Positions 16,088 through 61,682 of a stretch of DNA of 64,000 bases are shown here, one piece after another; the stretch's first letter is position 1, and each line of letters opens with the position of its first letter. The DNA comes from Patescibacteria group bacterium (GTDB lineage Bacteria > Patescibacteriota > Kazan-3B-28 > UBA10110), in contig JBAZXK010000001.1 in assembly GCA_041659905.1 (NCBI GenBank), forward strand, positions 122,670 through 186,669. Reading direction: 5' to 3'. The notes beneath the pieces are model-generated. The model saw only the letters and a list, made by a program, of their open reading frames with translations. It did not search any database and was not told the DNA's origin. The position numbers and the translations under genes were made by a program.

Positions 16088-21644
<5,557 letters not shown>

Positions 21645-31502: not shown

Positions 31503-31520
31503 AAGAAGCTACCTTATCAG

Positions 31521-31539
31521 AAAACCAGCTCCCAGTCAA
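31521..31539 (-). promoter_or_regulatory. conserved promoter module TTGACT-GGGAGCnGGTTTT (copy 1 of 3) upstream of the M23 peptidase
   Basis: Minus strand reads TTGACTGGGAGCTGGTTTT. The same 18-19-mer lies upstream of the two paralogs at 47561-47578 and 48575-48592. Confidence 0.55.
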
Positions 31540-35613: not shown

Positions 35614-35876
35614 ATGAGCAGCAGATATAGAAGTTGGCAGAATCTTGCTTGCGACTTTTTCTCACCCTACCCTCCTTGGGTGGATCGTCGCAGGCAGGAT
35701 TCTCCCGGCTTCTTTCGTGGCGCCCCAACCCAAATATTTTTTTTGGGGTTTGGCAAAAAGCTTTACAGCTCGGCACCATGGATACTTGGGGGGAAAGGAG
35801 TTAGGAGGGCGCTAGTCGTCCCTCTTAGCTTACAAAGTATTCCTTGCTTTGTAATCCTGGCCTCGTCCAGGATCTT

Positions 35877-38669: not shown

Positions 38670-38720
38670 CATCCCCCTAAATGCTAGACGCTATCCCCAG
38701 ATGCTACCCTACAGGGGTTC
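38670..38720. repeat. Family-B tail-type GC-rich element (copy B4)
   Basis: ccccctaaatgctagacgctatccccagatgctaccc, compare 44274-44320 ccccttaaatactagatgttaacccctagatgctgtg. Confidence 0.55.
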
Positions 38721-39629
38721 GATCCAGTTGTAGGCTTTTAAAGCCCAGTCTAGTAAATTCTTTCCTTCGGTAAATCTATCTGGACTATTTAGAAGTACAA
38801 CGATAACAGTCTGATTGCTCTCTCCCTTGGCAGCGACGACCAGCGATTCGCCAGCGTTATCGGTGGTGCCGGTTTTTACTCCGATGATATTCATATACTG
38901 TCCGACTAATTTATTGGTGTTAGTTAAATTATGTTGCAATTTTCCATAAATATCGGTAACGGTAGTTTTTTTAACCGCTACAATATCGCGAAAAGTTTCA
39001 TTACTGAGGGCGATACCGGTTAATCTAGCCAGATCCCGAGCGCAAGAATAATGATCTGGTTCATCAGCTCCCCAGGTGTTAGTAAAATGAGTACCGGTTA
39101 ATTTTAACGAAGCTGCCAGCGCGTTCATAGCGACAACAAACTGTTCTTCACTGCCGAAAGTTCCTTCCGCTAAAGCGTAGGCGGCGTCGTTAGCTGACTC
39201 GATTAAAGCGCCTCGCAAGAGATTATCTATGCTCATTTTTTCCCCGACTACTAAATACATCCGCGAGCCGCTGACCTCGTTAGCCGCTTCTGATACGGTG
39301 TAGACTTCATCCAAATTTGATTTACTGTTTAATACCACTAATGCAGTCATTATTTTAGTGATACTCGCAATCGCCATTTGTTTATCGGGATCTTTGGCGT
39401 AAAGAATCTTACCGGTATCTAGATCCATTAGGACAGCGGAAGTAGAATCGATCACCGGATCGGGGTAAAGGACATCCCGGACCGGTTCCGTATGTAAAAA
39501 TTGAGCCGCTAGAGTATGTAAAGAATACGCTTGCGGATCCGTCAGAATCCCCCAAAGATTGTCTTTCATCACGGCAGTGGAGCCAGTGAGGTAATTCAAG
39601 ATAACTAATAATATGGCAACTGTTTTCAT
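38709..39629 (-). CDS. dacA: D-alanyl-D-alanine carboxypeptidase (PBP5/DacA-type serine peptidase), secreted
   Basis: SITKIMTA (SxxK) after a signal peptide MKTVAILLV. The track start at 39701 is extended into repeat B1. The ATG at 39629 is preceded by AAGGGGAGGA supplied by that repeat. Confidence 0.8.
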   Translation of the reverse strand: MKTVAILLVILNYLTGSTAVMKDNLWGILTDPQAYSLHTLAAQFLHTEPVRDVLYPDPVIDSTSAVLMDLDTGKILYAKDPDKQMAIASITKIMTALVVLNSKSNLDEVYTVSEAANEVSGSRMYLVVGEKMSIDNLLRGALIESANDAAYALAEGTFGSEEQFVVAMNALAASLKLTGTHFTNTWGADEPDHYSCARDLARLTGIALSNETFRDIVAVKKTTVTDIYGKLQHNLTNTNKLVGQYMNIIGVKTGTTDNAGESLVVAAKGESNQTVIVVLLNSPDRFTEGKNLLDWALKAYNWIEPL

Positions 39630-39637
39630 ATTTATGG

Positions 39638-39725
39638 TTCCTCCCCTTACGGAGGGGAGGTTAGGTGGGGAGTGTTTATCTAAACTCCCACCTCCCCTCA
39701 CCCCTCCTCGGGCAGGAGGGGAAGA
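39638..39725. repeat. Family-B GC-rich triple-hairpin element (copy B1) in the dacA-aspS spacer, donating the dacA SD
   Basis: cctccccttacggaggggagg, ggtggggagtgtttatctaaactcccacc, and cccctcctcgggcaggagggg. Shares GGAGGTTAGG(A/T)GGGGAG with B2 and B3. Confidence 0.8.
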
Positions 39726-44211: not shown

Positions 44212-44320
44212 TTCCTCCCCTTACGGAGGGCCTGCCTGCCGGTAGGCAGGGAGGTTAGGAGGGGAGTTAACACTAAACCCCTACCCCTTAAATACTAGAT
44301 GTTAACCCCTAGATGCTGTG
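44212..44320. repeat. Family-B GC-rich composite element (copy B2: head + tail modules)
   Basis: cctccccttacggagggcctgcctgccggtaggcagggaggttaggaggggag, followed by the tail module shared with B4. Confidence 0.75.
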
Positions 44321-47498: not shown

Positions 47499-47513
47499 AG
47501 CGTGCCTCCTTAA

Positions 47514-47578
47514 TTTTCAATAGTGTCAGGCGCATTTACCTGTAGGGTCAGAATAGCAGAAAAACCGCTCCCAGTCAA
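47514..47578 (-). promoter_or_regulatory. conserved promoter (TTGACT-GGGAGCGGTTTT..TATTCT) plus conserved 5'-UTR hairpin for paralog 1
   Basis: Minus strand: TTGACTgggagcggtttttctgcTATTCT, then cugcaggNaaaugcgccugacacuauugaaaauu, about 90% identical to the copy at 48524-48592. Confidence 0.6.
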
Positions 47579-47740
47579 GGTTTTGTATATATTACGTTGT
47601 TTCAGGCTAGATCTGAGATCTTAAATTTCTATATTGGAGGGGCACCACTCAGCCAGTTGATAGAACACCTCAATCCCAATTAAAAACCCGCCCGTTAAGG
47701 CGAGGTTTTCTTCTATACTGCTAGTAGTGATGTGCAAATA

Positions 47741-48523: not shown

Positions 48524-48592
48524 AAAATTTTCAATAGTGTCAGGCGCATTTGCCTGCAGAGTTAGAATAGTATAAAACCCGCTCCCAGTCAA
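48524..48592 (-). promoter_or_regulatory. conserved promoter module plus 5'-UTR hairpin for paralog 2
   Basis: Minus strand: TTGACTgggagcgggttttatacTATTCT...gcaggcaaatgcgcctgacactattgaaaatt. Confidence 0.6.
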
Positions 48593-48709
48593 TATTTTAA
48601 TGTAACTTCTCCTTCCAGGCCAGAGGCGATTTTGCTCGGAGGGTAATATTATTCTTCGCCTGCCCGTGCCGGACTTGAGCGGCCAGGGAGTGAAATCGAG
48701 AAGTACTTT

Positions 48710-49462
48710 TTAGAGCTTATTTATTGGTAAAACAACCTCACGGATTTTGATTTTGGTGGGGAGAGCGGAAGTGGGGTTAAATTTTAAGAGTTGGTTAATA
48801 GTCAGGGGTATAGAAACCAGGCCAGTAGCCGGGTGTACGGAATAGGGGCTTCGGATCATCCCGTTTTTATGAATAATTTGTTCATCGAGTAAGATTGACT
48901 TGGCGGTAGTTTTGTCGGTGGAGCTGGTGGTAATAATCGGATTTTTCTTTAGAATAATTTTATAAAATTCGCCAGCATGTTTTGTTTGTAAGATTGTTTC
49001 CAATTCTGCTGCAAATTGTCTAATCTGTTTCCTGAATTTCAGCCAGTCCGGCTTCACATCACCTAGGCTCCACATAAAGTGAAATCCCCGATTACCGGAG
49101 AACTTCAGTAGATATTCAATGCCCTTTTTATCCAATAATTTCGCCATTTCGTAAGCGGCCAATTTAACCAAATCAAACATTTTATCTGTGCGCGCATCCA
49201 AATCCATCACAAACCAAACATCTTTTTCTCCTAATAGATGCGGATGGAATGAATAAGTGTGTAATTTCGCCCAAGCGATAATGTCTTTCGGACTATTTAG
49301 AGTAATCCAGCCGGATTTATCCGGTAGACCTTTGGCGCCATGCCGGCGATATAAAATATTCTTGTCAAAAACCTGTTGGACAGCGATTTTTCGATTCCGC
49401 AAAAATGGCCATGCTGCTGGCACCGCTTTTCCCCAATAATCTACTAACCAAGGTATCGGCAT
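48710..49462 (-). CDS. LigD-type primase-polymerase domain protein (AEP family, NHEJ polymerase)
   Basis: VWFVMDLDA (DxD) and FSGNRGFHF (SGxRGxH) motifs. The track start at 49552 (TTG) lies inside repeat A3; the ATG at 49462 (MPIPWLV) is preferred. Confidence 0.7.
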   Translation of the reverse strand: MPIPWLVDYWGKAVPAAWPFLRNRKIAVQQVFDKNILYRRHGAKGLPDKSGWITLNSPKDIIAWAKLHTYSFHPHLLGEKDVWFVMDLDARTDKMFDLVKLAAYEMAKLLDKKGIEYLLKFSGNRGFHFMWSLGDVKPDWLKFRKQIRQFAAELETILQTKHAGEFYKIILKKNPIITTSSTDKTTAKSILLDEQIIHKNGMIRSPYSVHPATGLVSIPLTINQLLKFNPTSALPTKIKIREVVLPINKL

Positions 49463-49477
49463 AACTCTTCTCTTTTT

Positions 49478-49550
49478 GTCATCCTGAGCGGAACAACAGT
49501 GGAGTCGAAGGATCTCCTCCACTAGATTCCTCGACCTCGCTCGGAATGAC
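49478..49550 (+). repeat. Family-A palindromic mini-repeat copy A3 between the ligase and polymerase genes
   Basis: gtcatcctgagcg...cgctcggaatgac termini; core gtggagtcgaaggatct...agattcctcgac. Confidence 0.8.
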
Positions 49551-49561
49551 AATAATAGATA

Positions 49562-50593
49562 TCAGTTCTCTTTAATAACTAATCTAGATGGTTTATCCAC
49601 TCGCAATCCCATATATACCGGTTGGCGCAGGATATTGTCTTTAGTCCATTCGCCAAAGGCAAATTCCCCCACCAGCCGCGGTTTGAGCCAGATAACAGTT
49701 TCATTTCTGGTTACCATACTCCCTCCCCTCCTAACCTCCTCGCCTAGCCGGCGAGGCTGGCCCTCTGCAGGGGAGGATTTTTTGGAGATGTCGACAAATG
49801 GAGATTTGGTGGATTTAAGTTTTAAGAATTTCTGCTTGAGCTCGCCACGCTCTGTATCAGTAAAACCAGTGCCGACTTTTCCGGCATAAACTAACTTCTT
49901 ACCCCGGTAATAACCCACCAAAACCGCTCCGAAAGTAGTTTTAGTCTTACCCTGACCGGGAGTGTAGGCCCCGATGACAAATTCCTGTTGGTTGTGGGTT
50001 TTGATCTTCACCCAATCACCGCTCCGCCTACCTTCTTGGTAGCGACTATCTATTCTTTTACCGATAATGCCCTCCCAGTGTTTTTGCTTAGCTTTTTTAA
50101 AAAGAGAGATGCCGTCGCTAGATAATGGTGCTAAATAATATAAAACCCCGAGTATGTAGGGTGGGTGAGGCTTGAATAGTAATCTAAGCTTTTCTTTACG
50201 CTCCAGCAGAGATTTAGTTTCCCAATTCTTGCCGTCATAATTTAGCAAATCAAAGGCCAAGTAGGCTGCCGGAACCCTTTTAGTCAGCTTGGCAATTTCA
50301 TGAGGATCGGTTTGACCAATGCGCGGCTGCAGAGCCTGAAAGCTACTAATACCTTTGCGAAAAGCGGTGATCTCACCATCTAGCACCAACTGTTTGGGAG
50401 ATAATTTCTTAATGGCTGCAACAATTTCCGGAAATTGTTTTGCCTTGTCTTTATTGTTTCGCGTCAGCAGTCTAACTTTTTCTCCGGTTTTAATTGCAAT
50501 AATCCGCATCCCGTCAATTTTATGCTCAAAAACCCACTCCTTGCTCTTGAAGGGTTTATCAACCAACCGGCAAAGCATCGGAGCGTATTTCAT
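49562..50593 (-). CDS. ATP-dependent DNA ligase (LigD/LigC-like ligase domain) carrying an in-frame family-B repeat insertion near the C-terminus
   Basis: Adenylation motif EHKIDGMR, OB-fold tail ...WLKPRLVGEFAFGEWT..LRQPVYMGLRVDK. The peptide SPAEGQPRRLGEEVRRGGS is encoded by repeat B3. Confidence 0.85.
   Translation of the reverse strand: MKYAPMLCRLVDKPFKSKEWVFEHKIDGMRIIAIKTGEKVRLLTRNNKDKAKQFPEIVAAIKKLSPKQLVLDGEITAFRKGISSFQALQPRIGQTDPHEIAKLTKRVPAAYLAFDLLNYDGKNWETKSLLERKEKLRLLFKPHPPYILGVLYYLAPLSSDGISLFKKAKQKHWEGIIGKRIDSRYQEGRRSGDWVKIKTHNQQEFVIGAYTPGQGKTKTTFGAVLVGYYRGKKLVYAGKVGTGFTDTERGELKQKFLKLKSTKSPFVDISKKSSPAEGQPRRLGEEVRRGGSMVTRNETVIWLKPRLVGEFAFGEWTKDNILRQPVYMGLRVDKPSRLVIKEN
49719..49785 (-). 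repeat. Family-B GC-rich element copy B3 inside the ATP-dependent ligase ORF
   Basis: The reverse complement reads cctcccctgcagagggccagcctcgccggctaggcgaggaggttaggaggggaggg. Compare B2 gagggcc-[hairpin]-aggttaggaggggag. Confidence 0.75.
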
Positions 50594-50649
50594 ATCTTCG
50601 CACCTTCATTATACAGAATACAGACAAAACAAAGCGAGAAGAATTACGT

Positions 50650-50676
50650 AATTAAATATATATTTAAATAAATACT
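50650..50676. repeat. degenerate copy of the AT-palindrome (taaatatatatttaaataaatactt) upstream of the ligase promoter
   Basis: Similar to the perfect 24-nt palindromes at 53116-53139 and 59021-59044. Confidence 0.45.
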
Positions 50677-50706
50677 TAGCTTTACACTAAAAAAGCCAGC
50701 GGCAGG

Positions 50707-52323
50707 TTAGTCTTTCGGAAGAGTGCCGGTGCAGGTAATGTCAGCACCTGGCAAATCTTCTTTTAGCTGGTCGCAATCCTCCGTAGTTACTCCCCGTCCA
50801 GACAGTTTTAATGTGGATAGTTGTTTCAAATTAAATAATGGGGAAATATCTAACGCTGGCAATAAACTGCTGGTTCCTGACGGTAAACGCAAACAGCCAG
50901 GGCCGGACTCTCTCAGGTCAACCGCTTTTAATTTAGCGGAATAAAGAAAAGATCGGATAGAGGTGAGGGGTGATCCCCGGAATGAAACGGTATTCATCTG
51001 CGGGAAAGGCAAATCTTTAACTTCTAACTGGTCGTTCATATTAGGAGCTAGGCTGGCAGTAAAATCCAGACCCACGGGGCTCTTTAAGCAATCAGCGAAC
51101 AAATATCGCAGTTTCTTAAACCAGAGCGTCGCTGAAATAGAATCGAGATCATTGCCACTGACATCTAGCCACAACAGGTTGTGCAGATTCTCGACTACAT
51201 CCAATTCAGTGGCATTGGTAGATGACATCGACAAAATCTGGATATTTTCCAGCGGTTTTAGGGCAGAAAAATCAACGTGTCCAAAATTATCCACGGCTTG
51301 CACATTGCCGATAGTCAGAATGCGCAACTTGCTTAGCGCTGATATGGGAAATAAGTTAACTTTCGGGGTAAATGTATAAATTAGTTTTTGACTCACTTCA
51401 AACCCGGCCGCAGCGCTATCGGCATACGGCATCCACGAGTAGCTGCCATACCCCCCGACATTGCCGCCCTGATTTATGCTGGAGCCTTGGGCGCTCACAG
51501 AAGGGATTTGCAGCGCTTCCAGGCAAGTCAGATTTTTGATAGCAGCGAGAGCGCTATAATTGTTGTCGCGAAAATCTCCGGGAATTTTTACCCTGGATTG
51601 TTCCTTTACTCTATAAGAATTTTTATTTACAAAAACCGGTAATATCGATGGGCCACTGTAATTTTTAAGAGAGAGATCTCCTGCTTTGGGAAGTAAATTA
51701 CCTAGATCTGTTCCAGGCCCGAATGGCAAAAAGGTCTGCGGATATTCGGACACCTCAGCCGGGATATAAAATATTTCCGAAACCGTATCGCCAGAAGAAC
51801 TCCTAGCTCCCGATGTTAGTTTAATAGTGTCATTAGGATAATATTCGCCGTAACCTTTGTTATCGGGCAATTCATAGAAAGCTCGGCAGGCCGGATAATA
51901 TACCCTTTCCGTGGACGAAGTTTCCGTGATCTCGCCGGTTATGGGATCAGTAATTTTTTTGGTATGAGTTTCTTCTTTCCAATAAGATTTCTTTTTGCAA
52001 TTCTCCCACCACACCGCTGCCGAAAACTTTATTTTACTGGGGCCGTCTAGACCGATTAATCTCTTACTAAACAGGCCGTCTTCTTTAAATTGCCCCGACA
52101 AATCCGTGAGTTCCGTGCTCATTTCGTGATGAAGCAGAGGATTGTATTTAACGTATTCGGTAGCGTAATCCGAATTAGAGCATAATAATTTTTTGTTTTC
52201 GGCTAAGCGTTGATAAAGCCAGGAATTTAAAATCTTTTCCTGCGTGATCGGCGGTTTAATGGAACAACCCGATAAAATAATCAGGAAAGTTACTGTCACT
52301 ACGGCTGGCCACCACTTCTTCAC
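50707..52323 (-). CDS. leucine-rich-repeat lipoprotein (secreted/surface)
   Basis: Signal peptide with lipobox LSGCS. LRR consensus LxxLxxLxLxxN repeated (LENIQILSMSS, LHNLLWLDVSGNDL, LKQLSTLKLSG). Confidence 0.7.
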   Translation of the reverse strand: MKKWWPAVVTVTFLIILSGCSIKPPITQEKILNSWLYQRLAENKKLLCSNSDYATEYVKYNPLLHHEMSTELTDLSGQFKEDGLFSKRLIGLDGPSKIKFSAAVWWENCKKKSYWKEETHTKKITDPITGEITETSSTERVYYPACRAFYELPDNKGYGEYYPNDTIKLTSGARSSSGDTVSEIFYIPAEVSEYPQTFLPFGPGTDLGNLLPKAGDLSLKNYSGPSILPVFVNKNSYRVKEQSRVKIPGDFRDNNYSALAAIKNLTCLEALQIPSVSAQGSSINQGGNVGGYGSYSWMPYADSAAAGFEVSQKLIYTFTPKVNLFPISALSKLRILTIGNVQAVDNFGHVDFSALKPLENIQILSMSSTNATELDVVENLHNLLWLDVSGNDLDSISATLWFKKLRYLFADCLKSPVGLDFTASLAPNMNDQLEVKDLPFPQMNTVSFRGSPLTSIRSFLYSAKLKAVDLRESGPGCLRLPSGTSSLLPALDISPLFNLKQLSTLKLSGRGVTTEDCDQLKEDLPGADITCTGTLPKD

Positions 52324-52355
52324 CGTTTTATTATACAGATTAAACCCGCGCTCTT

Positions 52356-52967
52356 CTACTGGGCAGCGCCGGCGCCAATTCGAATTGAAGCAGTGGCTGC
52401 CTCAAGAGTGCGGGCCAATTTATCTACAATAGGGTTGTTCAATCGGGAGCGCAAAATAGCCAGCACTTTTTGGCAAAACCAGAATCGTTCCTGCGGTGTC
52501 ACGCTAGGATTAAGTTTATACCACAAGGATTCGCCCTCTTCCAAATAAGAGGTGGTGATAGATTGGATAAAATGAATTTTATCGGCTGCGCAAATCATTA
52601 AAGCCTCCGGGCTAGCAACGGTCAATTGATCGAGATATTTTAATTTGCGCTCTCGCCAGGTTAATTTAAAATTCGACCGCCGGTGGGCGGTCTCTAATAC
52701 GCTTACTTCCTGGACAATTTGGCAGATGAGTTGGCTAAAGTCGCGGCAAATATCGGCTTGGCTGTAAACAGCTGGGTCCACATCTTCTAAAACATCGTGC
52801 AGTAATCCGGCCACAATAGTATTTTCGTCATCAGTATAGCGTGATAATAAAATGGCCACCGCATAAGGGTGGACCACATAAGGAAACTGCTCGGCTTTTC
52901 GGGATTCACCTTGGTGAATCTCATTTATTTTAGTGATAGCTTTTTGGACTAATGGAGTGATTTTCAT
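52356..52967 (-). CDS. HD-domain phosphohydrolase
   Basis: HD motif: VVHPYAVAILL...AGLLHDVLED. Confidence 0.75.
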   Translation of the reverse strand: MKITPLVQKAITKINEIHQGESRKAEQFPYVVHPYAVAILLSRYTDDENTIVAGLLHDVLEDVDPAVYSQADICRDFSQLICQIVQEVSVLETAHRRSNFKLTWRERKLKYLDQLTVASPEALMICAADKIHFIQSITTSYLEEGESLWYKLNPSVTPQERFWFCQKVLAILRSRLNNPIVDKLARTLEAATASIRIGAGAAQ

Positions 52968-53115
52968 AAAATCACATGTTTATTGCCCGCATTGTACTGC
53001 TACCACAATAGAATACAAGGGAAACCGTCCGGAAAGGCTATCTAACTCCTCATCCGGTACTTTTTACCACCATTTTCAACGGCTCAACCTATTGAGCCGT
53101 TCAGTTGTTCAAAAG

Positions 53116-53139
53116 AAGTATATATTTAAATATATACTT
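53116..53139. promoter_or_regulatory. perfect 24-nt AT palindrome AAGTATATATTTAAATATATACTT (copy 1) next to a minus-strand terminator hairpin (53157-53179)
   Basis: Exact copy at 59021-59044 with about 57 nt of identical flank. The hairpin stem shows compensatory changes between the copies. Confidence 0.6.
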
Positions 53140-53156
53140 CGGTATGTAATTAAAAA

Positions 53157-53179
53157 GCAAGGCCGTGGTGGTCTTGCTT
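53157..53179 (-). terminator. rho-independent terminator (minus strand) of the upstream small-ORF/lipoprotein transcript
   Basis: Minus strand: gcaagaccaccacggccttgc followed by ttttt. Confidence 0.6.
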
Positions 53180-53210
53180 GTGGTTCAATCTCAAAGGTTT
53201 AGAGACAATG

Positions 53211-53375
53211 GCTAGGGATCTGCCTCGCCAGCGGCTGTGCTGGTTTGAATAGATACGGGCGGATCATGTCTTACTAAACAAGTGGGTGGAAAGAATATCC
53301 CTATCACAGTGATAACTGCCAGCACAACAATGATAATTAGGGACCCCCATTCGCCCCAAAAACGCTTAAATAACA
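53211..53375 (-). CDS. small membrane peptide (54 aa)
   Basis: Strong SD AAAGGAGGAA 8 nt upstream. Translation: MLFKRFWGEWGSLIIIVVLAVITVIGIFF.... Not in the ORF track because it is under 60 aa. Confidence 0.5.
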
Positions 53376-53457
53376 TTTTAAAGTTCCTCCTTTGCTAGGA
53401 TACTTAAAGCATAGCAAAAAAAATGCCTAAAACAATCTAGGAGCTACTTTTAAGAAG

Positions 53458-53862
53458 TTACTTGGATGGCTTGCATTCAGCGCAACAATCCGGGATCATG
53501 GCTTCCGGGAAACCTTCATCTTGCATTTTTGAACAAGGAATTTCTCCATTCCCGTCCAAGACAATTCTCCAGCCAGCAGCTTCTTTAACGGCAAACCAGT
53601 AACCGCCGCCGGAACCGTTCTCATCCTGATACATCACTCCGCCCCGCGCATGATCACCGGTATTTTGCAATACGGTAATAACAGTTTTATCTGCCGGCCA
53701 GTTGGCTTTAGTCGCCAGGGCTTGTTTGATGGCGTCTAGATCCATCTGGCTAGTAGTATTGCCGATCCCATTCATGGACTGGTCTTTTGGTTTAACGGCG
53801 CACCCAGACAGAGCCAGTAGGCCTATAGTTACAATCAATAGAGGCAATGCGTATTTATTCAT
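53458..53862 (-). CDS. lipoprotein, hypothetical
   Basis: Signal peptide with lipobox LSGCA. Confidence 0.55.
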   Translation of the reverse strand: MNKYALPLLIVTIGLLALSGCAVKPKDQSMNGIGNTTSQMDLDAIKQALATKANWPADKTVITVLQNTGDHARGGVMYQDENGSGGGYWFAVKEAAGWRIVLDGNGEIPCSKMQDEGFPEAMIPDCCAECKPSK

Positions 53863-53871
53863 ATTGTTACT

Positions 53872-54405
53872 TTATATACCTAATTTGACTTTTTGTAATA
53901 TGGAACTTTCATTGTAATCGGTTCTCTCAAAAACAACGGCTTGTGCTTTTATCTTGGTTATGAGTTCGTCCAAGGCCACCCACTCAACCGTGCTTTTAGC
54001 ATTTTCCCACTGTAATTTTTCGTCTTTGATTTGAGGGTTCTCAATATTACCTTCATATTTACAGAGGAAATAGACTGTGGTCTTTTCGATATCCGCCTTC
54101 TCCCAATTGGTAAAGTTGCTGACGATGGAACCGAGATAACTTTCGATCTTTACTTTTACGCCGAATTCTTCTGCTAACCCTATGGTAACCATTTCCTCAA
54201 GAGATTTATCAGGCTCGACGGTCTGACGCATCAGCGAATAAATATCCAGTGAGCCGCGGACTCCTGAAAAATGATGGCACAATACCTGATTTTTATCATT
54301 CATTACGACCGCCCCTACCGAAAGCTGGAACGGCTGAGATGCTTCGCCTATAAAATAATGGTGTATCTTTTGCATGGCATCATTATAAAAGATTAGCGGT
54401 TTCAA
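53872..54405 (-). CDS. NUDIX-fold-like protein with degenerate Nudix box
   Basis: GAVVMNDKNQVL... and ...IGLAEEFGV resemble the Nudix box (RE replaced by IG). Confidence 0.35.
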   Translation of the reverse strand: MKPLIFYNDAMQKIHHYFIGEASQPFQLSVGAVVMNDKNQVLCHHFSGVRGSLDIYSLMRQTVEPDKSLEEMVTIGLAEEFGVKVKIESYLGSIVSNFTNWEKADIEKTTVYFLCKYEGNIENPQIKDEKLQWENAKSTVEWVALDELITKIKAQAVVFERTDYNESSILQKVKLGI

Positions 54406-54472
54406 AGCCAGAAGACAGTTTGAAGTATAAAAAAACCGCCGGAATGGCGGTTATGAATTCGAGAGGCTAAAA

Positions 54473-55030
54473 TCACTCTTCTGTTTTGAGCGTTAAACTT
54501 TCTGGGTTTATCGGGTCTTCTATGTCAAACCCCTTCTCTCTTAAAAATTTCTCCGCATGTCCAATCTGCTCAAACTCTCTTTCGGTAAAATCTAATTCAT
54601 CTTTTCTGCGCCATAACATTTTGTAAATATCATGCAATAAACCCGTTCTCTTCTTGCCCACACCCTGCATAACAACCCCATCTCTTATCTTCAGTCCTTT
54701 TCGCACCAGCATTTGCCGTTGTTTTTCTTCTTTCATCCACCTGTCGATTCTTAGAACCTGTCTTTGTTTAGATTTTTTTGCTTTCTCGGCCCGAAATTTC
54801 CACTCTTGATATTTAGTACCACTCCTTTTATTGCCAAAGCTATCGGTCTTATCTGGATTTGAAATGTCTAGAGTGATTACTCCGATGTCATAGGTCAATC
54901 TATCTCTTTGTAAGAGCGCATTGTCGAGATCGGAAGGCGGGAAAGTTGGTATAAAATTAGCTGACATATCATCGGGATCATTGGTTACAGCCGCATTTGA
55001 ACTGCTGTACACTTTTTTTGGTGCACCCAT
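54473..55030 (-). CDS. basic hypothetical protein
   Basis: 185-aa Lys/Arg-rich ORF (…KAKKSKQRQVLRIDRWMKEEKQRQ…) with no recognizable motifs. Confidence 0.4.
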   Translation of the reverse strand: MGAPKKVYSSSNAAVTNDPDDMSANFIPTFPPSDLDNALLQRDRLTYDIGVITLDISNPDKTDSFGNKRSGTKYQEWKFRAEKAKKSKQRQVLRIDRWMKEEKQRQMLVRKGLKIRDGVVMQGVGKKRTGLLHDIYKMLWRRKDELDFTEREFEQIGHAEKFLREKGFDIEDPINPESLTLKTEE

Positions 55031-55215
55031 TAGTTTGATCTCTCCTTTATTTCAAGATTACGAGAATACTCAAGAATACTACAAACCTATAAGTTTTCAT
55101 ATACTTTCTGACAACAATCTAAATCCAAAACTGGCTTAATATACCTAGTGCCAATGTTCTCTTAGAACTTTATTGTAGAACTCAAAGACAAACAAGCCGA
55201 CGATCATTATAAACC

Positions 55216-57081
55216 TTAACTCTTGCCCATGAACCCGCCCGACTGATGGTTCCACAGGGCTGAATATAAGCCTTCCTCTTTCATTAGTTGCTCATGAGTT
55301 CCATCTTGAGAAATCTTTCCCTTGTCTAAAACGACTATTCGATCTAAATGCCTAATTGTCGACAATCGGTGAGCAATAACAATGACTGTCTTCCCTTTCA
55401 TCAACTCCTTCAATCCATCTTGAATATATTTCTCCGATTCGGAGTCAAGCGAGCTAGTTGCTTCATCCAGCACCAAGATAGGCGCTTTTTTTAAGATGGC
55501 TCGAGCGATGGCAATCCGTTGCCGCTGACCGCCGCTCAGCTTGATGCCTCGTTCACCCACCAGAGTATTGTATCCGTTTGGCAGGGTAACAATAAACTCA
55601 TGCGCCCGCGCCAATTTAGCTGCTTTCATCACTTCTGCCTTAGTCGCCTTGTCATTACTGTAAGCAATGTTTTCCATCAGCGACCGATGAAACAGCATTG
55701 GTTCTTGTGGGACATAAGCAATAGCCCTGCGCAATGATTCTTGTGTCACCTGACTAATGTCTTGCCCGTCAATCTTGATTGCACCAGATTGTAAATTCAC
55801 AAATCGTAACAACAACTTGGTAATCGTCGTTTTGCCGCTACCGCTCGGCCCAATCAGCCCCACTTTTTGCTTACCAAGCACATCCAAACTAAAATCTTTC
55901 AGGAACAATTTTTTCTTCTCTGAGTCATCGGTATACCGAAAGTTGGCCGACTCGAAGCTAATCTTGGCGTCCTCTAACCTCAAAGCACGCGCATTTGGCA
56001 CATCTTCGACTGTTGGAGGATGCAAGAACATTTGGGTAAACTCGGCCGCCTCACCCAAAGAAGATTCGATATGGCGATAAATCCGATTAATCTCCCAAAA
56101 GACTCTCGTCACCTGCATATAATAAGAAAATACCACCACAATCGTTCCGGCCTGCAGTGATAGTTTATGCACAAAATAGATCGCCAAAACTAAACCCAGT
56201 ACATTAGTCACAACGTAGATAGGTGATAATATCAAATCTATTTTTAGATTATGGTGATCCGCCGCCCGCTTAAACTTAGCCGCAAAATCATCGGCATACT
56301 TGCCGAAAGTCGTGGACTCCCGTTTCTCCTTGGCAAACGACTTAATCCCCAGTATGTTAGTCATTGCGTCAGACAGTCGGCCAGCCATCTTACTGCTAGC
56401 TTCGTGGCGTAATGCCACTAACCGAGCCCGATGCCGAATCTTTGGAATACTGATAGTCAGCGTTATTAGTAGCGCGAAGATCAACGCCAACGGAATCCAG
56501 GGAGAATACCCCCACATCACCACTATCGCAAATATCATCGGGATAAAACTTGTCCCGATATTCATTGACAATGTGTCGGTAAAAATTTCGAAATTCCTGG
56601 CGTAAGCTAAGCTTTTTTTGGTTAACGAGCCAACAAAGTTGTCAGTATAAAATTCATAATCTCGATTGACCAGTTTGCGAAAAGCCTCTCGGCTCAGTGT
56701 GTTTAACCCTTTTGCCTCAACGGCAATTAGAGAATACACCCCAATCCTCCAGAGCATTTCACCTAACATCCACAAGCCGCCAAATAATATAACCAGGTTC
56801 AAAACCGCCCCCAGAGAAATCTCATTCTGCTGGACTAAAATGTTGATGATGCGGCCAATAATAAGCGGCGGAATAAAGAATACAAAAATATTCCCTATGG
56901 CTGGCGCAAACAAAGCCACTACCGTGTGCCACGGATGCTGTTTATATTGACGCCCATAGTCATTTAGCACCTGACGTACCGCTGCAGTTGAAACTACCTC
57001 TTTATCCATAGCTAACATTAACCCCCCGCTGATTTTATTCGATCCTTCAATTATAATATCTCGACTGATTATATCCAGCAT
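55216..57081 (-). CDS. ABC transporter, fused permease/ATPase (type I exporter, MsbA-like)
   Basis: Six TM helices, then Walker A GPSGSGKTT, signature LSGGQRQRIAIARA, and Walker B LVLDEATSSLD. Confidence 0.9.
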   Translation of the reverse strand: MLDIISRDIIIEGSNKISGGLMLAMDKEVVSTAAVRQVLNDYGRQYKQHPWHTVVALFAPAIGNIFVFFIPPLIIGRIINILVQQNEISLGAVLNLVILFGGLWMLGEMLWRIGVYSLIAVEAKGLNTLSREAFRKLVNRDYEFYTDNFVGSLTKKSLAYARNFEIFTDTLSMNIGTSFIPMIFAIVVMWGYSPWIPLALIFALLITLTISIPKIRHRARLVALRHEASSKMAGRLSDAMTNILGIKSFAKEKRESTTFGKYADDFAAKFKRAADHHNLKIDLILSPIYVVTNVLGLVLAIYFVHKLSLQAGTIVVVFSYYMQVTRVFWEINRIYRHIESSLGEAAEFTQMFLHPPTVEDVPNARALRLEDAKISFESANFRYTDDSEKKKLFLKDFSLDVLGKQKVGLIGPSGSGKTTITKLLLRFVNLQSGAIKIDGQDISQVTQESLRRAIAYVPQEPMLFHRSLMENIAYSNDKATKAEVMKAAKLARAHEFIVTLPNGYNTLVGERGIKLSGGQRQRIAIARAILKKAPILVLDEATSSLDSESEKYIQDGLKELMKGKTVIVIAHRLSTIRHLDRIVVLDKGKISQDGTHEQLMKEEGLYSALWNHQSGGFMGKS

Positions 57082-57242
57082 GATTATTTATCAGATCTAG
57101 TTGAGTGGGCTAGTTATTTAACTCAGACGCCTTCTGGCTGACCTTCTCGAGCTAGAACTTTTAGAAGAGCAAGCCCAGATTGACCATTCGCATTCTAGCG
57201 TATACTATTGTGTATAAATCCAGACACAGAGAGGAACTTGAC

Positions 57243-58304
57243 ATGAAAGCTAGAAAGCAAATCCAAATTAGTGGTATCGGCACTATTATTTCTCCGCCTT
57301 TTTGGGTAAATCCTGATTTCAGGAACATAACCTACACGGGGGGAGAAAAGTGTCTGTACAATCACACAGTCCCTTGCAATGAAGGGATGGTCTTCGACCA
57401 ATCCGATCGCGTTGTGCGCATAAGCTACGACGGCGAGATTCAACCGCTCTGCGAAAGACCCAACTTCGACGGAGTTTATGGTTCAGGTTGGGCCACGACG
57501 AATATCAATGCGGTAATCATTAACCACAAAGATAACTTCAGTCTTGTCTCGTTCGATGGGACGACAAAGCCTCTCTACAGCAGCTCGGGTAGATTAAGAT
57601 TTTCTCCCCTGCGCGCCTGTAGTAAAGGGCCTATCTTTCACTTTTTCTCTTGCCCCGAAAAAGAGAAAAACGATGAAAGATGGGAGTTTGTATTTGTTTC
57701 CTTCGAGGGTGAAAGCAATACGCTCTATGAAGGTCCGAGATGTTTCAGTAATGTGGTTGACCAGGGATTACTGATATGTACTGAGAGCAACCCTTACCAA
57801 AACTCCGGCTCTGTCCTACTGATCGAACCAGATGGAACGCAACGAGAAATTTTTAAACCCCCGGTTGGAGAAAACTGGTTAGCCCCTTCCTATGGTTTCA
57901 GCTGGAGCGGCATTCATGCTGTTTATAACAATCACTACCATCTTATCCCATTCGACGGCAGGAAACCCGCCTCTTACTCTGGGCGTTACCAGTCTTTTGG
58001 GGGATGCCCAAAAGGACTCGTTGTGTTTCTCCCTAATCGACTACTGGTTGTTCCTTTTGAAGAAGATCAGCCCCGACCTGTCTGGCAATTTGACAGCCCA
58101 GGGGAAGCACTTGGAAGTTGTAATGCAGGAATATTCATCCAGCAGGAAGACGATATCCTTCTTGCACCATACGACTTATCGACACCAAAGACTATCGTCA
58201 AGGGTCTGCCAAACAAGGATGCCATACATTTGGATATCAGACCAACATACAAAGGACTGCTTATTATGCACGGAGTCAGTTCAACTATGATCGAGGTCAA
58301 ATAG
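57243..58304 (+). CDS. repeat-containing hypothetical protein (seven or more ~45-aa repeats with the FDG...LY motif; possible beta-propeller)
   Basis: Recurring RISYDGEIQPL, LVSFDGTTKPLY, FVSFEGESNTLY, LIEPDGTQREIF, LIPFDGRKPASY. GAGAGGA SD before ATG 57243. GC-richer than the flanks. Confidence 0.5.
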   Translation: MKARKQIQISGIGTIISPPFWVNPDFRNITYTGGEKCLYNHTVPCNEGMVFDQSDRVVRISYDGEIQPLCERPNFDGVYGSGWATTNINAVIINHKDNFSLVSFDGTTKPLYSSSGRLRFSPLRACSKGPIFHFFSCPEKEKNDERWEFVFVSFEGESNTLYEGPRCFSNVVDQGLLICTESNPYQNSGSVLLIEPDGTQREIFKPPVGENWLAPSYGFSWSGIHAVYNNHYHLIPFDGRKPASYSGRYQSFGGCPKGLVVFLPNRLLVVPFEEDQPRPVWQFDSPGEALGSCNAGIFIQQEDDILLAPYDLSTPKTIVKGLPNKDAIHLDIRPTYKGLLIMHGVSSTMIEVK

Positions 58305-58333
58305 ATCTTGGTTGTCACCTTATTCGAAAACTA

Positions 58334-58366
58334 GATACCCCGTCTATACGCCGGGGTATTTAAATA
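58334..58366. terminator. bidirectional terminator between convergent genes
   Basis: ataccccgtctatacgccggggtattt. Confidence 0.6.
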
Positions 58367-58409
58367 TCTCATCTGGCTGGCCTCCTCGAGCGCTAATATT
58401 CGGACATAC

Positions 58410-58946
58410 TTATGCTTCTGCAACCTTGTTTGCGAGATTCTCTACCACCTCTACATTTGGCAAATGTTTGAGAAAAGCGGTAGAAACTCGCAATTTTGAT
58501 ATTTGTTTTCCACCGCCGACAATGATGGTTTCTTTTTCCATCAGACGACTGTCGATTAGGATCTTCCACGATTCCGGAAGACCGACAGGCGTAATGCTGC
58601 CATACTCCATACCAGTTTCCTGAATTACCTCTTCAAGAGGAGCCATGGAAACCGTTTTTGCGTCCAGCAGTTCACAGACCAGACCATTGAGATCGGCGCG
58701 ATAACCGACTGGAACCAGAACAGCGGCCGTCGTTATTGTTTCTCCGCGCTTTCCTCGTACAACGATGCAGTTCGCCCCATCTTCTAAGCTCACATCATAG
58801 TGATCAGCCAGCGCCACCCCATTCATGTATTGCGGGTCAATCTGCCCAACCAAGACACCAGGAGAATCTGCCGCAGCTCTATATACCGATTCGCTAACGA
58901 GTTCGGAGTGATCTTTGATGGGCTGGAAATCTAAATGTTCTTTCAT
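58410..58946 (-). CDS. YbaK/ProX-like aminoacyl-tRNA deacylase domain protein
   Basis: Length and pattern (…AAVLVPVGYRADLNGL…IVGGG…) fit the YbaK/ProRS-associated domain. Confidence 0.55.
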   Translation of the reverse strand: MKEHLDFQPIKDHSELVSESVYRAAADSPGVLVGQIDPQYMNGVALADHYDVSLEDGANCIVVRGKRGETITTAAVLVPVGYRADLNGLVCELLDAKTVSMAPLEEVIQETGMEYGSITPVGLPESWKILIDSRLMEKETIIVGGGKQISKLRVSTAFLKHLPNVEVVENLANKVAEA

Positions 58947-59020
58947 GTTTCAATTATATCGCTTACAGCGATCTCACTAAGCGATACGAGTTTTATTGAA
59001 CTTCTTTAGGACCCAAAAAG

Positions 59021-59044
59021 AAGTATATATTTAAATATATACTT
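59021..59044. promoter_or_regulatory. perfect 24-nt AT palindrome AAGTATATATTTAAATATATACTT (copy 2) next to the terminator hairpin 59061-59080
   Basis: Identical to 53116-53139. The hairpin caagactgtgcagtcttg preserves its stem through compensatory substitutions. Confidence 0.6.
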
Positions 59045-59217
59045 AGGTATGTAATTAAAAAGCAAGACTGTGCAGTCTTGATAGTATACCAAAAAACACC
59101 CTCTAATGGGGTGTTTGTTTGATATAGTCCCGCAGGGCGGGCATCAGTAAGTCAAGTTAAGAGAAGGTGCTAAAAGGTTCGAAAACTTTGTGATTTTATT
59201 ATACTTCCACTCTGTAC

Positions 59218-59427
59218 TCAAAGAAAGCTATTCACGGCAATAAGTATAAGCCCGATGAGAAGTAGCACCAGCGCAGCAAGTATTATCATACAATTTCTAC
59301 CCACAATATTGTTATAGTCCCAGCGATCTTTTTCAATTCTCGCGTTAACTATAACAAATGTGGCAGCGCACATTCCCACCGCCGTAACAAAACCTATAAC
59401 GGCTAGGACAATACCGATTATTAACAT
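59218..59427 (-). CDS. small membrane protein (2 TM)
   Basis: AAGGAG SD. Confidence 0.45.
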   Translation of the reverse strand: MLIIGIVLAVIGFVTAVGMCAATFVIVNARIEKDRWDYNNIVGRNCMIILAALVLLLIGLILIAVNSFL

Positions 59428-59557
59428 CTGTTAGCTCCTTATCAAAGGGCACCTAGGCCCCGTGGAATGGTTTGATTATATTCTAATATCAAAATCTCCG
59501 CAACCGAAGCGGATAAATGTATTGGCTGGGGAGGTAGGGCTTCTGTTCTCTGACACA

Positions 59558-59839
59558 CTAAAACGGCCTGGAAATCTTCGCCTCGTCTACTTTGACCTTG
59601 TGGGAAGTGACCAGAGCCTCCAAGTGCTCTCGAAACGCCTGCATGGATATGTTGCCCTGGCATGCGTTTGAGAGTGCCAAAAAGCCCTCATCCTTCGTCA
59701 GACTTAAGCCGAGAGCCAGCACACCCATGTTGAATCCAAGCTGAACCTTCAACTCTTCTGATAAATCATCCCATTTCTCCACCTGCGTGAAGCGGAGCAC
59801 CTGCTCACACGCGTGGGTAACGAACTCCTCATGTGTCAT
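59558..59839 (-). CDS. hypothetical protein (93 aa)
   Basis: AAGGAG SD 6 nt upstream. Confidence 0.45.
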   Translation of the reverse strand: MTHEEFVTHACEQVLRFTQVEKWDDLSEELKVQLGFNMGVLALGLSLTKDEGFLALSNACQGNISMQAFREHLEALVTSHKVKVDEAKISRPF

Positions 59840-59924
59840 CTGTATCTCCTTAATGCTCTTCGCGGGATTATAACTATAGTTTCTATCTAACTTAGCTTAT
59901 CGTGCGGGATAACCTACCACGAAT

Positions 59925-59998
59925 TGGCTGGGACGGTAGGGGTCGAACCTACGATCACGGGGCCAGAACCCGTTGCCTTACCACTTGGCTACGTCCCA
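59925..59998 (-). tRNA. tRNA-Gln (anticodon CUG) with U1:A72 and G73
   Basis: Minus strand: TGGGACG...anticodon stem ACGGG/CCCGT, loop TTCTGGC, T-arm GTAGG-TTCGACC-CCTAC, CGTCCCA-G-CCA. U1-A72 and G73 are GlnRS identity features. Confidence 0.85.
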
Positions 59999-60113
59999 TT
60001 AAATCGCTACGCGATTAATTTATCCAATGTCACCAATGTAACACCAATTACCAATGAATCTGGCCAGGGGCTACGTCCCATTGATGTTTTAGGGGATTCT
60101 TCCGAACTTTATC

Positions 60114-60428
60114 TTATTTAGCGAAACTCACCACCACTATGGCCGCTATTATAGCCAACCAGGCTACTGTCAGCAAGAGTAAGGTAATAGCCTTACTCCA
60201 ATCCTTTTTATTGAGCGCGAGATATAATGGGTAACCCAATACGGATCCAGCTGATAGCACGGCTACGATCATAAAAATGAGCGGCATGGCCAGCATACCC
60301 ATAAAATCAGGTGCTTCACCAAACCAAGCCTCGCCGTGTGTCATCAATTGTGCCCACAACCATACCACTACAAATGCCGCGACGGCCTGCGCCAAACTGA
60401 ACCAGACTAACTCTTTGATGTGCTTCAT
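60114..60428 (-). CDS. small membrane protein (3 TM); track start extended into repeat A4
   Basis: ATG at 60428 (MKHIKELVWFSLAQAV). The upstream part of the track ORF is a translation of the repeat. Confidence 0.5.
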   Translation of the reverse strand: MKHIKELVWFSLAQAVAAFVVVWLWAQLMTHGEAWFGEAPDFMGMLAMPLIFMIVAVLSAGSVLGYPLYLALNKKDWSKAITLLLLTVAWLAIIAAIVVVSFAK

Positions 60429-60464
60429 TTGATTGATGTTAATGATATTTGTTACATTATCCCT

Positions 60465-60544
60465 GTCATCCCGACCATAGTGGAGGGATCTCGGCGCTTG
60501 TGTCTCGAGATTCTTCGACTCCACTTCGTTCCGCTCAGAATGAC
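60465..60544 (-). repeat. Family-A palindromic mini-repeat copy A4
   Basis: The reverse-complement core aacgaagtggagtcgaagaatct...cgagatccctcc matches the A1 core almost base for base. Right terminus is cgctcagaatgac. Confidence 0.8.
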
Positions 60545-60554
60545 AGATGTAGGG

Positions 60555-61682
60555 TTATTTGTTGACTAGTTGTTTGTAGAGTTTTTCGGTTTCATGCACC
60601 ATGGTAGTAACGGTGAATTTATGCAGAGTTTCATCCCCGCCCACCGTCAACTTTTTTTGTAATTTCTTGTCATTTAATAACTTCATAATCGTTACTGCTA
60701 ACTTCTTCGAGTCGCCAGGAGTGACCAAAATGCCATTCCGATTATGCGTGATGATTTCTTGGATGCCACCGACTTTGGTGGCAATGACTGGGATATGCGC
60801 TTTCATCGCCTCTAAAATCGAGATACCGAAAGCTTCCGACTTAGAGCACAGCACAAAAACTGTGAAGGTTTTTAAGATTGCTTCAATCCGCGGTAAGGCG
60901 CCAGTGAAAATAACTGCCGATTCTACTCTGAGCTTTTTAGCCAGGGTCTGCAGCCAATTTTGCAACGGACCGGCTCCCACAATCACCAGTTTGGCAGTGG
61001 GGATTTTTTTAAGAATATAGGGCATAATGCGCAGTAGGGTGGCGGTATCTTTTTGAATATTTAAACTGCCGATAGTGCCAATCACGACATCTTTTTTACA
61101 TAAATTATACTTTTCTAACAACTTACATTCATCGTCCGCTCGACCATCATTGATAATGGCGATACCGTTATAAATCACTTTGATTTTATTTGGCTTAGTA
61201 ATATTGGTGGCAATCAAAAAATCTGCTACTGCCTGAGAAACAGCGATAGTCATATCTGTCCATCTATCCAACATCCTGAGTGAACGAATATGCGCCCAAT
61301 GCAAGAGCGGATTGTCTAATTTAAAATCTTCTGTCCAGGTATGTTCGGTATAAACCACCTTAATAGGAAGATCGCGCACCGCCAACCGCGCCAGTAACCC
61401 TGCCCGCTGTCCATGAGCGTGCAAAATATCCGGGTCATACTTAGTTAACAGTTTTCTGATGGCACTCACCGCTGCCATATCTGAGCGGGATCGCATCGGA
61501 ACAAGAAAGGTATTGATATGCAGCCGGTTTAACTCATCAGCTAAAGGTCCTTGCGGCAAGATCACTGACACGCTAAATTCTTTGGGATCCAAATTGCCAA
61601 CCAGTGATAATAAATGCCGCGGGGCGCCAGTAATGGCACTTTCAGCAATGACATAAATGATACTAATCTTTTTTTTAGCCAT
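60555..61682 (-). CDS. Glycosyltransferase family 4 (GT4, RfaG-like)
   Basis: EAFGISILEAMKAHIPVIATKVGGIQEII..NGILV, the E-x7-E GT4 signature. Confidence 0.85.
   Translation of the reverse strand: MAKKKISIIYVIAESAITGAPRHLLSLVGNLDPKEFSVSVILPQGPLADELNRLHINTFLVPMRSRSDMAAVSAIRKLLTKYDPDILHAHGQRAGLLARLAVRDLPIKVVYTEHTWTEDFKLDNPLLHWAHIRSLRMLDRWTDMTIAVSQAVADFLIATNITKPNKIKVIYNGIAIINDGRADDECKLLEKYNLCKKDVVIGTIGSLNIQKDTATLLRIMPYILKKIPTAKLVIVGAGPLQNWLQTLAKKLRVESAVIFTGALPRIEAILKTFTVFVLCSKSEAFGISILEAMKAHIPVIATKVGGIQEIITHNRNGILVTPGDSKKLAVTIMKLLNDKKLQKKLTVGGDETLHKFTVTTMVHETEKLYKQLVNK

Follow-up and report, generated by a model that had tools for sequence, protein, structure and literature searches.

Palindromic repeats inserted in frame into protein genes are best known from Rickettsia, where the Rickettsia palindromic elements (RPEs) enter housekeeping genes that are unrelated to one another and, once translated, add segments to the protein surface (PMC10969869). 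We describe here an event of this known kind in a new setting, Patescibacteria and many other phyla. The DNA analyzed is a 64-kb stretch from a Patescibacteria group bacterium (contig JBAZXK010000001.1, positions 122,670–186,669; hereafter the window), and the subject is a GC-rich multi-hairpin repeat, designated family B, one copy of which (B3) is read in frame within the gene of an ATP-dependent DNA ligase. Like RPEs, family B consists of interspersed palindromic repeats found in frame in unrelated housekeeping genes, its hosts being two ligases, IleRS, pyruvate kinase, Fpg, LipB and a GT2 glycosyltransferase. RPEs are about 150 bp long and belong to one genus, whereas family B units are 35–115 nt, GC-rich and found in many phyla; the two families are set apart by description, having no visible sequence relation. 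To our knowledge, RPEs have no gene-bearing full-length form, whereas family B has one, in which the hairpins enclose a small gene of the nuclease family DUF559. This gene-bearing form is the new feature, and we found no description of it in an open-access library of papers. We consider it rather probable that the family B copies are miniature non-coding derivatives of a widespread DUF559-associated palindromic selfish element.

Several other known systems share a part of these characteristics. Repetitive extragenic palindromic (REP) sequences and their doublets (REPINs), together with the REP-associated RAYT gene, resemble family B in having short hairpin repeats, inverted doublets, a flanked gene in single or low copy and a repeat sequence that co-varies with the lineage of the gene. 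However, the flanked gene there is a Y1 HUH transposase and lies between separate REPs, whereas that of family B is DUF559 (PD-(D/E)xK-like), lies inside one element unit, and is accompanied by no GTAG head. MITEs, miniature transposable elements with inverted repeats, likewise have short non-coding copies, 40–115 nt in family B, with the termini of a longer coding copy, deletion intermediates (locus L139 in the case of family B) and inverted-repeat-like ends. Unlike MITE parents, the full-length form of family B is about 0.45 kb and its cargo is no recognised transposase, and the flanks revealed no clear target-site duplication. Small GC-rich hairpin elements that stand out from a background of lower GC, with nested hairpins and occasional in-frame copies as in family B, are also known as the GC clusters of yeast and fungal mitochondria and as the small dispersed repeats of cyanobacteria; these are organellar or lineage-specific, and we know of no nuclease gene of DUF559 type associated with them. 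The Vsr-like/EDxHD homing endonucleases (I-Bth0305I and those of the split-intein 'fractured genes') have in common with the DUF559 cargo the fold group, the small size and the location of the gene within another selfish element (PMC3239194, PMC2677866, PMC3424549), but their genes are found within group I introns or inteins and home to a single allele, whereas the host in family B is a multi-copy palindromic repeat without splicing.

The core of family B, GGAGGTTAGGWGGGGAG (17 nt), occurs exactly three times in the window, at 39656–39672 (+), 44250–44266 (+) and 49723–49739 (−). A search allowing up to three mismatches gave four matches, against 0.18 on average in shuffled windows, where four was never reached in 100 shuffles; the fourth match, at 20019, has three mismatches and is chance-like. 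Two exact copies of the head, TCCTCCCCTTACGGAGGG, lie at 39639 and 44213. Folding of all copies was far above that of shuffled sequences (B3 sense RNA, −35.9 kcal/mol, z −3.8; B1, −49.3 kcal/mol, z −3.3), DNA folds agreed, and a scan of the window for GC-rich islands gave B3 as the strongest-folding island within a single open reading frame (ORF). On these grounds the shared GC-rich hairpin repeat noticed in the original prediction is real, while the genome, which was described there as AT-rich, has a GC content of 43–45% and is not strongly AT-rich.

The three copies differ in completeness. B1 (39638–39723, + strand), between a class II aminoacyl-tRNA synthetase (aaRS) gene and dacA, is a complete miniature with three hairpins: an alpha hairpin plus core (39638–39672), a central stem-loop (39673–39690), and a C-arm plus beta hairpin (39691–39723). 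B2 (44212–44266, + strand), between the AP_endonuc_2 and SIS/PGI_C genes, is an alpha-type copy without a beta hairpin and with a nested hairpin CCTGCCTGCCGGTAGGCAGG at 44231–44250. B3 (49716–49777, − strand) is a solo alpha-type copy (TCCTCCCCT...GGAGGTTAGGAGGGGAGGGAGTAT), translated in frame as amino acids 273–293 of the ligase, in which the inner hairpin CCTCGCC-GGCTA-GGCGAGG is nested at 49738–49756 (−). The nested hairpin lies between head and core, being CCTGCCT/AGGCAGG in B2 and at locus L031 and CCTCGCC/GGCGAGG in B3; B1 has none. The subtype of B3 ends in GGGAGTAT(A), and the same ending is found at loci L003, L009, L027 and L031. As a side observation, the nested mini-hairpin CCTGCCTGCCGGTAGGCWGG is present at about 1390–1420 of a Thermodesulfovibrionia locus (L190) beside family elements, at 4590–4640 of L031 and at 44231–44250 of the window, and this inner hairpin may be a widespread mini-element in its own right.

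The host gene of B3 (49562–50593, − strand) encodes a LigD-type ATP-dependent DNA ligase of non-homologous end joining with 343 amino acids (Pfam DNA_ligase_A_M, 5–198; DNA_ligase_A_C, 218–334). Every gene in this part of the window is on the minus strand, so that B3 is in sense orientation, and it is read without a frameshift as SSPAEGQPRRLGEEVRRGGS at amino acids 273–292, as had been predicted. The predicted position between the adenylation and OB segments needs correction, because B3 lies within the OB/C-terminal domain. Orthologues of the ligase have 58–73% identity and 311–318 amino acids. In the 20-sequence alignment A1, the 25 residues ISKKSSPAEGQPRRLGEEVRRGGSM are missing in 18 of 18 orthologues other than a near-identical protein (P0001), and B3 makes up most of this 25-codon insertion; a codon-level comparison with the orthologous genes of loci L064 and L065 gave the same insertion in the window ligase. 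The alignment of orthologues, which the original prediction had proposed as a check, thus identifies the ligase segment as an insertion and not as a conserved part of the protein.

Structural comparison places this insertion in a loop. The ligase domain of M. tuberculosis LigD (PDB 1vs0) aligns to residues 13–269 and 300–341 of the window ligase, with 9 residues opposite 30, and an AlphaFold2 model (mean predicted local distance difference test score, pLDDT, 84.9) falls below 50 only at 143–146 and 271–297, the flanking OB strands being above 90. The insert is accordingly modelled as a disordered loop of 20–25 residues, rich in Gly, Arg, Pro and Glu, in an otherwise confident OB domain. The pLDDT minimum and the break of the 1vs0 alignment coincide, so that the insert falls in a loop or on the surface, where the fold can accommodate it. 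The insert-bearing ligase presumably still works. The orthologue at locus L065 (P0006) has an in-frame insertion of its own, SSPPTPPLGKGRIGRGLW, with 15–20 residues in the loop matching residues 143–146, and its DNA, CCCCACCTACA-CCTCCCCTTGGTAAGGGGAGG-ATTGGGAGGGGAT, belongs to the same repeat family. The same gene has therefore been invaded twice, independently, at both loops that are unstructured in the model. P0001, on NCBI contig JBAYKS010000004.1, is 100% identical in protein sequence and has the insert, and the contig is 99.97% identical to the window over 49608–60593; the insert is thus carried by two near-identical assemblies. P0001 is annotated as partial because its contig ends inside the ligase gene. 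The end corresponds to window position 49608, 46 nt from the stop codon and near both this family and a second GC-rich repeat family (see below), which suggests an assembly break at repeats.

In the Patescibacteria loci, the alpha unit of family B has the form TTCCTCCCCT-loop-AGGGGAGG-TTA-GGWGGGGAG, and the beta unit the form CCCCTCCT-loop-AGGAGGGGAA, which reads on the opposite strand as CCCCTCCT-loop-AGGAGGGG-TTA-GGGGAGG. Full-length elements of about 0.42–0.46 kb have the order alpha hairpin, TTA, G-rich arm (GGWGGGG), a DUF559 gene of about 120 amino acids, C-rich arm and beta hairpin, and the core motif stands at the expected Shine-Dalgarno (SD) place of the nuclease gene. For 60 alpha–beta pairs with equal loop length, the reverse complement of the beta loop matches the alpha loop of its partner (identity 0.78, versus 0.51 ± 0.02 for shuffled partners), and the stem arms are mirrored (CCTCCCC versus CCCCTCC). 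Together the ends thus act as inverted repeats, although each folds perfectly alone. The element termini are TTCCTCCCC and GGAGGGGAA, with no GTAG tetranucleotide beside the palindrome. Reading by hand indicated that four of the six frames of a unit can be stop-free, depending on the loop. Because the variable loop lengths misalign the arms (alignment A2), a covariance model was dropped. A circularly permuted arrangement was seen in loci L069, L073, L085, L088, L123, L133, L166 and L169 (contigs with 55–57% GC), where beta and alpha are direct neighbours enclosed by a long outer stem, GAACCACCCCACC...GGTGGGGTGGTTC; these could be tandem junctions or a three-way-junction variant.

The association with DUF559 was found by clustering ORFs over about 190 loci, which had been selected for containing the motif. 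Apart from housekeeping families, one small family appeared, in six loci of which two are identical in sequence. It is DUF559 (PF04480, E 1e-27 to 1e-31), and its gene lies between alpha and beta in L053/L159, L111, L126, L148 and L170. The ATG is 5–40 nt past the alpha hairpin, TTAGG and G-arm, and the stop codon is at or beside the C-arm, directly followed by the beta hairpin. In Patescibacteria copies the G-arm GGAGGGGA is 5–7 nt upstream of the ATG, and in the two copies read (L053/L189) the stop is the TAA of CTCCCC-TAA-CCCCTCC; owing to this stop codon within the junction of C-arm and beta, several DUF559 proteins end in LP. Locus L139 holds a truncated intermediate, in which alpha, a DUF559 remnant of 35 residues and beta lie within 182 nt. 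In alignment A4, B1 and another three miniatures match two gene-bearing Patescibacteria copies over their first ~48 and last ~50 bases, the gap of about 335 nt removing the ORF.

We also approached this association from the protein side. A protein-only search with DUF559 gave 2,492 matches, including Patescibacteria, Nitrospirota, Nostocales, Planctomycetota and Bacteroidota, and family hairpins, with arms that differ by lineage, flank all six of the homologues that were picked on protein similarity only. The canonical layout, with alpha before the ATG and beta at or after the stop, was found in Patescibacteria (L189) and Thermodesulfovibrionia (L190), and in Doudnabacteria (L193) with the variant arms TCTCCCC/GGGGAGA. 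On a 1.3-Mb contig (L198), alpha is directly before the ATG, a second alpha follows the stop, and the C-arm and beta are about 190 nt downstream. In Nostocaceae (L191) there are variant full palindromes on each side (CCCCTCTCC/GGAGAGGGG-TTAGGGGTGAGG), and in Bacteroidota (L197) direct repeats with CCTCCCCTTGTCAGGGGAGG on each side. Residues D54, E65, D67 and H71 are invariant in the alignment of the nucleases, and the nearest solved structure is 3hrl, an uncharacterised "endonuclease-like protein" (E 4.6e-15). Neither NCBIfam nor PADLOC gave a function or a transposase domain for the cargo. The family is large: a library of 1.84 billion proteins contains 21,708 cluster representatives that match it at E ≤ 1e-3, and its small free-standing members, which have no assigned function, make up tens of thousands of clusters at 50% identity. 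It has been classed with Vsr and the EDxHD homing endonucleases (PMC3424549; PMC3239194; PMC2677866), a group that contains a proven homing endonuclease family (PMC3424549, PMC3239194). Within an open-access library, we found no literature linking DUF559 to hairpin repeats. In DUF559 ORFs lengthened by gene callers (cluster representatives P0256, P0276, P0303, P0245 and P0270), the added N-terminal part was read as PPLxKGRLGGV and the C-terminal end as PPL(A/T)PPxKGGE; both stem from translation of the alpha and beta hairpins and can be used as a protein-level signature of the element.

Further copies, which the original prediction proposed to look for genome-wide, were found in related Patescibacteria metagenome-assembled genomes (MAGs) and in many other phyla. 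A scan of a genome collection with the exact core gave 63 loci, 11 in two Patescibacteria MAGs and 52 in other genomes, mostly one per genome. In at least 22 of these 52 loci the complementary arm CCTCCC(C) is located a few bases upstream of the core, with a chance level of about 1% by our own estimate. Arm-bearing loci belong to Anaerolineae, Dehalococcoidia, Nitrospirota, Nitrospinota, Planctomycetota and Elusimicrobiota, and further to Clostridia, Chitinophagales, Gelidibacter, Hyphomicrobium, Devosia and Vibrio jasicida; several such genomes have extra copies within the 8 kb fetched, one Dehalococcoidia chromosome having three. The unit of hairpin plus core is thereby found in Chloroflexota, Nitrospirota, Planctomycetota, Bacteroidota, Proteobacteria and others, and family B, as judged from these sequence matches, is not lineage-specific. 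A metagenome scan for CCTCCCCT-N5-AGGGGAGGTTAGG gave at least 120 stretches on contigs with 33–65% GC, and most of the stretches listed have the same three-hairpin layout with lineage-specific central stems. Most copies of the family are intergenic, and both orientations occur. The one match in viral contigs has no hairpin and is attributed to chance, and a database-wide search with the concatenated element-coded peptide returned one protein. Within an open-access library of papers the core motif was not found printed in a bacterial context; only eukaryotic primer sequences matched.

Comparison with syntenic relatives is informative on the gain and loss of copies. Loci L065 and L066 are syntenic with the window, having in the same order genes for a leucine-rich repeat (LRR) protein, ligase, PrimPol, AhpC, AP endonuclease 2, PGI_C, class II aaRS, Peptidase_S11 and Der. 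B1 is missing from the orthologous aaRS–dacA spacers of both, and the site of B2, the AP-endonuclease–PGI spacer, is 2 nt in L065 and contains unrelated repeats in L066. The family-B-free spacers other than the 2-nt one contain another GC-rich repeat, of the type GTCATYCCGAGC...GTCGAGGRAYC. Because these spacers of L066 lack family B though its MAG has copies at other places, the repeat is evidently gained and lost site by site. Four near-identical Doudnabacteria contigs, compared for presence and absence, were identical. The view of family B as a mobile or selfish repeat is strongly supported by the orthologous spacers and ligase loop without copies, by its multi-copy occurrence in related Patescibacteria MAGs and in many other phyla and by the gene-bearing relatives. 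The two outcomes that the original prediction had named as refuting it, a conserved ligase segment and a lack of further copies, were both contradicted.

The ligase is not the only protein entered. Of 206 elements found by hairpin patterns, 11 are at least 70 codons deep in long open frames; two of these frames, in high-GC DNA, are probably spurious, and one is the L065 ligase. Real hosts were accepted when Pfam domains were present on both sides of the insert, and absence of the insert from orthologues was checked for the ligases only. The other hosts are IleRS (L100), with VPPLPEGRLGGVG between the catalytic and anticodon-binding domains; pyruvate kinase (L107), whose barrel domain is split into two matched stretches; Fpg/MutM (L184), with an N-domain longer by about 60 residues; LipB (L070), which has the whole three-hairpin element, read as IPPLCKGRLGGVDLPPLTPPYKGGE; and a GT2 glycosyltransferase (L136).

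It had also been claimed that B1 supplies the SD sequence of dacA and that the repeat is sometimes co-opted. In the translation start region of dacA (39627–39644, − strand), GGAGG at 39644–39640 is followed after 10 nt by the ATG at 39629–39627, and this GGAGG is the reverse complement of the left arm of B1. From that ATG, dacA has 306 amino acids, the same as the orthologues of L065 and L066, in which purine tracts are supplied by other repeats. In the predicted mRNA fold, however, the GGAGG is paired within the head hairpin. Start codons were not enriched just beyond the ends of the 206 elements (5.6%, versus 6.7% at random positions). Co-option at dacA is therefore plausible on sequence grounds at this one site but is not general to family B, and SD supply as a general role of the family was rejected. 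An intrinsic terminator role of B1 and B2 was rejected as well, because no T-run follows the GC-rich stem of either on the transcribed strand; a terminator scan left both unflagged on the minus strand. In a search of the window against Rfam only tRNAs passed the gathering score, and permissive scans of B1 and B3 gave sub-threshold matches to generic hairpins.

If family B consists of miniature derivatives of the DUF559-associated element, as we consider rather probable, B1 would be a complete miniature after loss of the nuclease gene, and B2 and B3 would be solo alpha units that both enclose a small second hairpin. The site of B3 would be a variable loop at the surface of the ligase OB domain, entered in one of the four stop-free frames. 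The DUF559 nuclease would act on the element ends and drive the spread, possibly by nicking hairpins in their folded state; we speculate that pairing of alpha with beta, whose arms are mirrored, would produce T.G and C.A mismatches, which belong to the substrate class of Vsr. The insertion would presumably be completed by host repair, as a hydrolytic nuclease could not finish it alone. Several points weigh against this reading. We know of no PD-(D/E)xK nuclease that alone serves as a transposase, which leaves the insertion chemistry unexplained. Neither the 64-kb window nor locus L067 (11 kb, overlapping the window over its whole length) contains a DUF559 gene. A clear target-site duplication was not found, the flanks (A/G)ATT...AAT(T) being either a duplication of a palindromic target or an extension of the terminal inverted repeat. 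The loci in which the DUF559 link was discovered were motif-selected, the independent set being six cases, two of which (Nostocaceae and Bacteroidota) show variant arrangements. A wider proposal, which we put forward tentatively and with less confidence, is that small free-standing DUF559 endonucleases are the mobilising enzymes of unrecognised nuclease-only selfish elements across many phyla, that the GC-rich palindromic repeats of Patescibacteria, Chloroflexota, Nitrospirota, Cyanobacteria and others are in large part hairpin termini and miniatures of such elements, and that these routinely write new loops into essential proteins.

On the main rival reading, the repeats would have spread by other means, such as an unidentified transposase or template switching of replication and repair at hairpins, with DUF559 being a free-standing homing gene that targets the central stem and the gene-bearing copies being invaded repeats. 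The constant position of the gene in the loop of the central stem, the large excess of miniatures over gene-bearing copies, the L139 remnant, which fits the invade–decay–lose cycle of homing endonuclease genes, and the fold group shared with the EDxHD homing endonucleases (PMC3424549; PMC3239194) all agree with this explanation. It offers no agent, however, by which miniatures could have reached new non-homologous sites, at least five different genes among them, and the repeat arms co-vary with the DUF559 lineage as expected for a cognate enzyme–substrate pair, though this is compatible with homing too; we regard it as unlikely, while deserving serious attention. Much less probably, the copies are not mobile DNA but serve the host as cis-regulatory RNA structures under selection at their sites, acting as terminators, attenuators, mRNA stabilisers or SD-sequestering hairpins. 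The absence of a T-run after B1 and B2, of an Rfam match and of start-codon enrichment at the ends all argue against such a role, as do the occurrence in both orientations, the copies inside coding regions and the absence from orthologous spacers; in its favour are the strong hairpins, the mostly intergenic location, the GGAGG placed by B1 10 nt before the dacA ATG and the G-arm at SD distance from the DUF559 ATG in gene-bearing copies. We give hardly any credence to a last idea, in which the ligase segment would be a low-complexity linker, ancestral or functional, whose likeness to B1 and B2 arose by GC-rich chance; the orthologue alignment refutes it. The peptide is indeed of low complexity, and loop length at the site varies a little among ligases, but the segment is in no orthologue, including one with 73% identity, its 17-nt exact core, flanking head and GGGAGTAT end are common to intergenic copies here and in other genomes, and it folds more strongly than any other GC-rich island within one ORF of the window.

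These findings would have several consequences. Protein-coding palindromic repeats would extend from Rickettsia to the streamlined genomes of Patescibacteria and to several phyla, and would gain a candidate parent in the 0.45-kb unit with a DUF559 nuclease; DUF559, a large unexplained protein family, would in turn gain a testable substrate, the alpha and beta hairpins. Artefacts of annotation and assembly find an explanation, such as short hypothetical ORFs with PPLxKGRLGGV, false N-termini and contig breaks beside repeats. Ligase, IleRS, pyruvate kinase, Fpg and LipB offer natural loop-insertion experiments.

Three other segments had been connected with family B. The segment B4 (38674–38698, + strand), downstream of dacA, had been regarded as a tail-only member. 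It resembles only the sequence following B2 (44285–44309, + strand), with which it forms a local two-copy repeat, and this tail motif was found in 0 of 196 related loci fetched; B4 is therefore part of a separate local repeat outside family B. Two degenerate relatives had also been proposed: a GC-rich hairpin with TACTCCCTCC at 30541–30592 (+; DNA fold −16.7 kcal/mol, z −3.85), and, recognized by eye in the pth–mfd spacer at 35783–35822 (+), GGAGTTAGGAGGGCG followed by a small hairpin. Because they have only short motifs (TACTCCCTCC; GGAGTTAGGAGGG) in common with family B, their relationship is plausible but unproven.

The window contains several additional repeats. A second GC-rich hairpin repeat, GTCATTCCGAGCGAGGTCGAGGAATC, is located at 49518–49550, just past the ligase stop codon, and is probably the family called A in the first reading of this DNA. 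It gives the ORF 48710–49552 a false N-terminus (MSFRARSRNL...), the real PrimPol start being probably M31. Related copies occupy the orthologous spacers of L065 and L066, and one is in frame in the L100 IleRS, read as CHSERSEESQGDPSPAHRRTQDD. An AT-rich palindrome, AAGTATATATTTAAATATATACTT, with a shared 57-nt context, has three intergenic copies of 68–95% identity (50649–50705, 53111–53167 and 59016–59072) and could represent a further repeat family, an operator or a terminator. A 73-nt direct repeat with 88% identity (47512–47584 and 48526–48598, also 31515–31539) lies upstream of two neighbouring minus-strand genes and contains a promoter-like TTGACT-17-TATTCT, which suggests a duplicated promoter or leader module. 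The arms of an 82-nt inverted repeat (13067–13148 versus 60464–60545, 82% complementary) are 47 kb apart, and because both are apparently inside long ORFs, they may represent a conserved motif of paralogous genes.

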